The notes under the pieces are model-generated. The model was given only the letters and a program-made list of their open reading frames with translations, was not told the DNA's origin and made no database searches. A DNA stretch of 39,615 bases from Escherichia phage PSK1. The position numbers were made by a program, and so were the translations under genes. Each line of letters starts with the position of its first letter. Positions within the stretch are counted from its first letter, which is position 1. Location: the sequence record PP541512.1; one strand, 5' to 3'. Below, in pieces: positions 36,987 to 37,010 of this stretch.

Positions 36987-37010
36987 CTAAACTATCACTA
37001 TAGGGAGACC
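36987..37010 (+). promoter_or_regulatory. Phage RNAP promoter, best consensus copy, upstream of the capsid gene (CTAAACTATCACTATAGGGAGACC)
   Basis: Only copy with the full GGGAGA initiation region. The leader GGGAGACC...GGTTTCCC resembles the T7 gene 10 leader stem-loop as remembered. Confidence 0.8.

Follow-up and report, generated by a model that had tools for sequence, protein, structure and literature searches.

The window analysed here is the whole 39,615-nt stretch of Escherichia phage PSK1 DNA (PP541512.1), which represents the complete genome, in circularly permuted form, of a K1F-like phage of the T7 family, genus Kayfunavirus. The window starts inside gene 12, and all K1F genes map onto it in order (synteny with NC_007456). 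Membership in the genus is borne out by genome-wide nucleotide similarity as well as by this synteny: the RNA polymerase (RNAP) region shares 99.4% identity with Kayfunavirus LI10P1 and 98.8% with phage IME177 by megablast, about 157 phage records match the same region at 90% identity or higher, and named E. coli, Salmonella, and Enterobacter phage records cover 78–85% of the first 25 kb at 90–95% identity. In this circular permutation, the interval from the right-end promoter to gene 0.3 (15724–17417) must hold the physical ends (direct terminal repeat), together with the early promoters of host type.

Several further elements of the genome were recorded along the way. The tailspike gene 17 (10018–12720, 900 aa) has only its N-terminal 287 aa in common with the K1F endosialidase (83% identity), while the remainder contains a Tail_spike_N domain, a pectate-lyase-like domain that scores below the Pfam cut-off, and an S74 chaperone domain; host-receptor specificity probably differs from that of K1F. 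A candidate frameshift in the 3′-terminal part of gene 4 was rejected, with the window reading frame ending in WENNDF and a stop codon, a normal acidic tail of the T7 gp4 type. The C-terminal 21 aa of the annotated K1F gp4 (586 aa; locus L001, 10939–12699) align to window positions 28990–29080 in another frame, and this discrepancy probably stems from the K1F record, through an indel or an issue of annotation, and not from a defect of the window. A single strong sigma-70-like site (TTGACA, an 18 nt spacer, and TAGTAT) is present at 16866–16895.

The initial annotation drew attention to the interval 36987–37010, which contains ACTAAACTATCACTATAGGGAGACC, and described it as one of eleven promoters sharing a single motif. 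That count was reproduced exactly: a search for TAAACTATCACTATAGGGA with at most three mismatches recovered 11 copies in the window, all on the + strand, against 0.00 expected from 100 dinucleotide shuffles. Scored with a position weight matrix (PWM) derived from them, the 11 sites reached 31.6–38.4 bits, while the best score in a background of 20 shuffled windows was 11.6 bits. The sites, given from −17 to +6, and one associated terminator are as follows.

2280–2302, + strand: phi13-type promoter; +1 at 2297; before gene 13 (2332); ortholog at K1F 25338.
9949–9971, + strand: phi17-type promoter; +1 at 9966; before tailspike gene 17 (10018); ortholog at K1F 32614.
15702–15724, + strand: phiOR-type promoter near the right genome end; +1 at 15719; ortholog at K1F 38869.
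19108–19130, + strand: RNAP-gene promoter, 75 nt 5′ of the RNAP start; +1 at 19125; ortholog at K1F 2491.
22429–22451, + strand: phi1.1/1.3-type promoter; +1 at 22446; before small ORFs and the ligase gene (23029); ortholog at K1F 5569.
24161–24183, + strand: phi1.6-type promoter with G at −12; +1 at 24178; before gene 1.6 (24208); ortholog at K1F 7200.
25128–25150, + strand: phi2.5-type promoter, CACTGTAGG variant; +1 at 25145; before the SSB gene 2.5; ortholog at K1F 8516.
27249–27271, + strand: gene 4 promoter; +1 at 27266; before the primase/helicase gene 4 (27322); 31.6 bits; ortholog at K1F 10883.
33177–33199, + strand: phi6.5-type promoter; +1 at 33194; before gene 6.5 (33261); ortholog at K1F 17194.
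35998–36020, + strand: phi9-type promoter; +1 at 36015; before the scaffold gene 9; 38.4 bits, the best match; ortholog at K1F 20015.
36986–37008, + strand: phi10-type promoter (the flagged copy); +1 G at 37003; 36.1 bits; identical to K1F 21014.
38426–38470, + strand: Tphi-like terminator, a 17-bp hairpin followed by a T-run, between capsid gene 10 and tail gene 11; −25.2 kcal/mol, z = −4.5.

Aligned on the presumed start, the 11 sites give the consensus (A/C)CT(A/T)AACTATCACTATAGG, with positions −16, −15, −13, −11 to −5, and −2 to +2 invariant. The −12 to −8 pentamer reads ACTAT in ten sites and GCTAT in the remaining one, a variant found also at the orthologous K1F site, and the core from −8 to +2, TCACTATAGG, is exact in 9 of the 11 and altered at one or two bases in the other two. 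Since +3 is A in six sites and G in five, “GGGA” is not strictly the consensus of the start region. All sites are co-oriented with the genes and, except for the right-end promoter, lie 30–110 nt 5′ of a gene start. They thus show what characterizes promoters of the T7 group: an element of about 23 bp with a conserved core, present in many co-oriented copies 5′ of gene blocks.

The flagged copy is the phi10-type promoter because it is placed directly before gene 10, which encodes the major capsid protein (37111–38160); its +1 at 37003 is 108 nt 5′ of that gene. It is identical to T7 phi10 from −8 to +8, and its transcript, like the T7 gene 10 leader, opens with a stem-loop (37003–37033, GGGAGACC...GGUUUCCC; −16.3 kcal/mol, z = −3.6). 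The Tphi-like terminator closes the phi10 transcription unit. At the other end of the range, the gene 4 promoter (+1 at 27266) has the most divergent core of the 11, CACCTTAGGG; in view of this degenerate core it is probably weak and may even be inactive. The PWM returned a single additional match in the window, a degenerate promoter-like site at 33206–33228 (+1 at 33223; CCTAAGATATGACTATAAGATAG) located 29 nt 3′ of the phi6.5-type promoter and identical in K1F (17223). With 13 bits it just exceeds the best shuffled score; it may represent a duplicate that has decayed or a weak promoter in tandem.

For the comparison with T7, we used the 17 promoters annotated in NC_001604. These yield TAATACGACTCACTATAGGGAGA and share with the PSK1 set both the overall 23-bp architecture and an identical consensus from −8 to +2. 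Upstream of the core, T7 carries C, G, A, C at −12 to −9 where PSK1 carries A, C, T, A (with G at −12 in one PSK1 site), so the outward reading of ATCA against CAGC in T7 stands when set against annotated promoters. A second difference, overlooked at that stage, lies at −17 to −14, where T7 has TAAT and PSK1 has (A/C)CT(A/T). In both phages promoters precede genes 1.x, 2.5, 6.5, 9, 10, 13, and 17 and occur at the right end; T7 has 17 and PSK1 11, and PSK1 has one directly before gene 1 where none is annotated in T7. Scanning the T7 genome with the PSK1 matrix gave zero sites of at least 8 bits, and scanning the window for complete T7-, T3-, K11-, and SP6-type promoters gave none. Near-matches in the window to the upstream half of the T7, T3, K11, or SP6 promoters were rejected as candidates; outside the window’s own promoters they lack the CACTATAGG core.

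The enzyme expected to read these sites is encoded within the window, together with the two protein segments equivalent to the promoter recognition loops of T7 RNAP.

19200–21881, + strand: single-subunit T7-like RNAP gene, 893 aa (phmmer against PDB: T7 RNAP).
19476–19508, + strand: equivalent of the AT-rich recognition loop, window aa 93–103 DGKLSTSRPSV versus T7 93–101 KAKRGKRPT.
21444–21539, + strand: specificity loop YRKKDTTRLNLMFLGSFNLQPTVNKGTKKELD, window aa 749–780, aligned to T7 739–770.

In phmmer searches against PDB, T7 RNAP chains matched with E = 0 and 1271 bits, with aa 1–893 aligned to 1–883. Identity is 64% to the T7 enzyme, 63% to T3, 59% to K11, and 32% to SP6, and the catalytic and substrate-selection residues are retained (window D547, D822, Y649, and H794, corresponding to T7 D537, D812, Y639, and H784). 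The T7 residues known to contact promoter bases are R746, N748, R756, and Q758 (PMC11880802), which align with R756, N758, N766, and Q768 of the window. Because the window thus carries R, N, N, and Q at the four contact positions, R756N (T7 numbering, used below) is the lone contact change. Over the loop as a whole, about a dozen of 32 positions depart from T7, most of them residues without a base contact, and the loop carries S754, N756, and V761. For the 748/756/758 triple, the window reads NNQ, as does K1F, compared with NRQ in T7, DRQ in T3, KNK in K11, and RKS in SP6.

The loop peptides quoted in the initial annotation, FNLQPTVNKGTKKELDKHKQ for window aa 765–784 and FRLQPTINTNKDSEIDAHKQ for T7 755–774, are exact. 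The accompanying statement that this segment differs from T7 at the expected residues applies to R756, which has become N, and fails for R746, N748, and Q758, all unchanged; R746 and N748 moreover lie upstream of the quoted segment, whose other differences fall mostly in the distal part of the hairpin. As far as the alignment indicates, the earlier reading is therefore to be corrected to a single contact substitution, with no general divergence of the contact residues. A further correction concerns the N-terminal part of the enzyme, where the AT-rich loop, on the same alignment, is diverged from that of T7 and 2 aa longer. The T7 AT-rich recognition loop binds the promoter at −17 to −13 (1CEZ structure). 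By analogy, the PSK1 AT-rich loop is likely the reader of −17 to −13, and its divergence matches the base differences at −17 to −14. A second recognition module, formed by this loop and the −17 to −14 bases, has diverged as well.

Comparison with K1F placed both partners of the pair in a known class. K1F gp1 (NC_007456) is 96% identical to the PSK1 RNAP and 100% identical over aa 661–893, which includes the whole specificity loop, and its 36 substitutions all fall outside that loop. The same 11 promoters are present in K1F at orthologous positions, along with the same weak twelfth site. Nine show no difference over −17 to +6; the gene 4 promoter differs by a single base at −17, and the right-end promoter is changed at +3 to +6. 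Gene order is the same in the two phages. Past aa 287 their tailspikes are dissimilar, and several of the early genes have diverged; all of these differences are without bearing on promoter specificity. The PSK1 pair shows these features of the K1F specificity class: the NNQ triple with 754S and 761V, ACTAT promoters, and the co-occurrence of both in relatives.

A native enzyme of the genus provides the closest biochemical reference. The RNAP of phage Ro45lw (Ro45Iw; MK301532) is 93% identical to that of PSK1, has the same R/N/N/Q contact residues, and differs within the loop by M750L and one T-to-S change. Takatsuki et al. (2025, PMC12272871) purified the native Ro45lw RNAP and determined ACTTAACTATCACTATAGGGA to be its minimal promoter, with transcription in vitro starting at G. 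This promoter is identical over all 21 nt (−17 to +4) to the PSK1 site with +1 at 15719 and one base off the sites with +1 at 2297 and 19125. By analogy with this proxy, a 93%-identical RNAP acting in vitro on the same promoter sequence, the PSK1 sites would drive transcription by the PSK1 RNAP and would initiate at G. A 2026 Kayfunavirus genome paper gives the same consensus, CTWAACTATCACTATAGG (PMC13298934).

The K1F pair has also been known as an engineered part for more than a decade. Temme et al. (2012, PMC3458549) surveyed T7-like phages and observed that the promoter binding region has a separate consensus in each loop subfamily; they grafted the K1F loop into T7 RNAP, replaced −12 to −7 of the T7 promoter, and obtained an active pair with 17-fold induction that was reported as orthogonal and that controlled a second pathway. 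Their K1F graft comprises 632S, 754S, 756N, and 761V, with ACTAT at −12 to −8 of the cognate promoter (Zhu et al. 2025, PMC11880802, Table 2). Preference of the engineered K1F RNAP for ACTAT over T7, T3, and CGG promoters has been shown experimentally (PMC3458549, PMC4299498). In 754S/756N/761V and in ACTAT at −12 to −8, this T7(K1F) pair matches PSK1. It differs in having a T7 backbone, the T7 AT-rich loop, and T7 bases at −17 to −13, whereas PSK1 combines a native enzyme and a diverged AT-rich loop with the native upstream bases (A/C)CT(A/T)A.

The association between loop residues and promoter bases was then followed across relatives. A scan of IMG/VR with the RNAP alignment returned 80 loci, 79 of which were analysed along with the window, K1F, and T7 (82 loci in all); for each we recorded the 748/756/758 triple and the commonest −12 to −8 pentamer before CACT[AG][AT]AG[GA] cores. 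The results by triple were as follows.

NNQ, 20 loci (17 from IMG/VR, the window, and two references): ACTAT commonest in 20 of 20.
KNK, 17 loci: GGACA (14) or GGGCA (3).
KNF, 15 loci: GGTAG in 15 of 15.
DRQ, 4 loci: ACCCT (3).
NRQ, 23 loci: CGACT (10), the rest scattered.

Zero loci with a triple other than NNQ, among the 82, had ACTAT as the commonest pentamer. The scatter in the NRQ group probably reflects cores that the search pattern does not fit. Two loci are of particular value: L020 and L051 (RNAP at 10001–12664) encode RNAPs 87% identical to that of PSK1, on a K1F-like loop backbone with D748 and R756, and their promoters carry the T3-like ACCCT at orthologous places, including 5′ of gene 1. 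Their AT-rich loops and −17 to −13 bases have changed too. A third locus, L019 (RNAP at 3475–6129), encodes a 78% identical enzyme with the triple K/Y/P and has AGGTA promoters. Switched promoters at orthologous positions in these three loci amount to natural specificity switches inside one clade, and because both partners switch, the key residues track the promoter bases within it, as Zhu et al. (2025, PMC11880802) concluded at larger scale. The T3 (DRQ/ACCCT) and K11 (KNK/GGGCA) classes belong to the same enzyme family, share the promoter architecture, and likewise place specificity at 748/756/758 and −12 to −8; they differ from the K1F class in the key residues and bases themselves, and L020 and L051 hold a T3-like combination.

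Taken together, the eleven repeats very probably serve a K1F-like phage as its middle and late promoters, read by its own RNAP and belonging to the known K1F specificity class, which is already in use as a pair orthogonal to T7. By analogy with T7, the −8 to +2 core would be handled by the parts shared with the T7 enzyme (R746, Q758, the intercalating hairpin, and the active site), and discrimination from T7, T3, and K11 promoters would come from the specificity loop reading −12 to −9 (ACTA) in the major groove. In such a scheme, Asn at 756 would replace the Arg-guanine contact at −9, so that an A:T pair is accommodated, and the unchanged Asn748 may read C−11/T−10 through a different hydrogen-bonding mode. 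Further discrimination would probably be contributed by the diverged, 2-aa-longer AT-rich loop reading −17 to −14, including C−16/T−15. In T7, N748 reads promoter positions −11 and −10. The T7 residue-to-base assignment is not transferable to PSK1, since N748 is unchanged although both of these bases differ, and a phmmer search of PDB with the PSK1 RNAP found no K1F-type RNAP-DNA structure.

The suggestion in the initial annotation that this could be an orthogonal polymerase-promoter pair gains support: going by the match to the K1F loop and ACTAT and by the cross-activity of the chimeras (PMC4299498), the pair would be orthogonal or largely so. The orthogonality figures come from T7-backbone chimeras with T7 flanks at −17 to −13. 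A possible, though distinctly less probable, alternative is that the pair is distinct but only partly orthogonal. The native RNAP would then prefer its own promoters and still read those of the T7 type to a useful extent, given that the entire −8 to +2 core and three of the four contact residues are common to T7. The chimera data cut both ways on this point (Segall-Shapiro et al. 2014, PMC4299498). The K1FR fragment, a T7-backbone chimera, gave 2448 on PK1F, 260 on PT7, and 43 on PT3, and thus retains on PT7 about 10% of the activity seen with its cognate promoter, while the T7 fragment reached 6326 on PT7 and 19 on PK1F in the source data, a drop of about 330-fold on PK1F; the identity of PK1F was taken from Table 2 of Zhu et al. 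(ACTAT at −12 to −8) and from our scan of the K1F genome. In the specificity network of Zhu et al. (2025, PMC11880802), a K1F cluster is connected to that of T7 through an AATAT promoter node. The same study rated the grafted K1F set at only 8-fold orthogonality, with relatively high non-cognate activity. Against substantial cross-reading stand the zero T7-type promoters in the window and zero K1F-type sites in T7, and discrimination may be sharper in the native pair than in the chimeras, which lack the native AT-rich loop and the native −17 to −14 bases.

It is rather improbable that specificity is set wholly by the quoted loop segment (window aa 765–784), with nothing contributed by the rest of the enzyme. 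R756N does fall inside this segment, and a graft of T7 744–761 alone redirects T7 RNAP to ACTAT promoters (PMC3458549, PMC11880802), but in a split context the graft required the extra mutation M750R for activity; M750 is not part of the quoted segment, nor are R746 and N748, two of the four contact residues, and −17 to −14 and the AT-rich loop also differ from T7 and change together again in L020 and L051. That the repeats are not promoters at all, and serve instead as dispersed repeats for recombination, packaging, or regulator binding, recalls their initial description as “dispersed 18 bp repeats” in one recent genome paper (PMC13298934) and is hardly credible, given that their −8 to +2 consensus is identical to that of T7 promoters, that they are co-oriented with genes and directly 5′ of them at positions orthologous to T7 promoters, that their bases covary with RNAP loop residues across relatives, and that the sequence is functional in vitro as a promoter for the 93%-identical Ro45lw RNAP (PMC12272871).

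Within the preferred reading of the sites as K1F-class promoters served by the phage’s own RNAP, we put forward, tentatively and at somewhat less than even probability, a more specific model of two co-evolved modules: an NNQ loop in which Asn748 would read C−11/T−10 and not G−11/A−10, and a longer AT-rich loop that would read the invariant C−16/T−15. The context-dependent Asn748 readout in this model is not explained by the T7 co-crystal.

The promoter directly before the RNAP gene is a feature of this lineage. It is kept in K1F (2491), in Ro45lw (as the CACTAAAGG variant), and in IMG/VR relatives, and in L020 and L051 (ACCCT) and L019 (AGGTA) it is present with correspondingly switched specificity bases; the T7, T3, and K11 records have no annotated phage promoter directly before gene 1. 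A full-strength promoter at this position suggests positive autoregulation of the RNAP. An RNase III-like structured element considered between this promoter and the RNAP start was rejected, the fold being no better than in shuffled sequences (z = 0.28).

As a discovery, the pair carries little weight. The promoter-polymerase pair is already known as the K1F specificity class, and the finding is real but ordinary because it matches a pair that has been described and used as an orthogonal synthetic-biology part: the K1F-type promoter and loop have been catalogued, grafted, and used in multi-channel gene control since 2012, and a native Kayfunavirus RNAP with such a promoter was biochemically characterised in 2025 (PMC12272871). 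The useful result is that the genome is now cleanly annotated for eleven promoters and their +1 positions, the terminator, and the RNAP determinants. If the two-module model is true, the native pair would be far more orthogonal to T7 than the loop-graft chimeras (about 8–10-fold), and if the diverged AT-rich loop together with −16C/−15T adds discrimination, it could improve the leaky engineered K1F channel. For the biology of the phages themselves, the gene 1 promoter would mean that RNAP synthesis in this lineage is subject to a positive-feedback loop, which T7 lacks.
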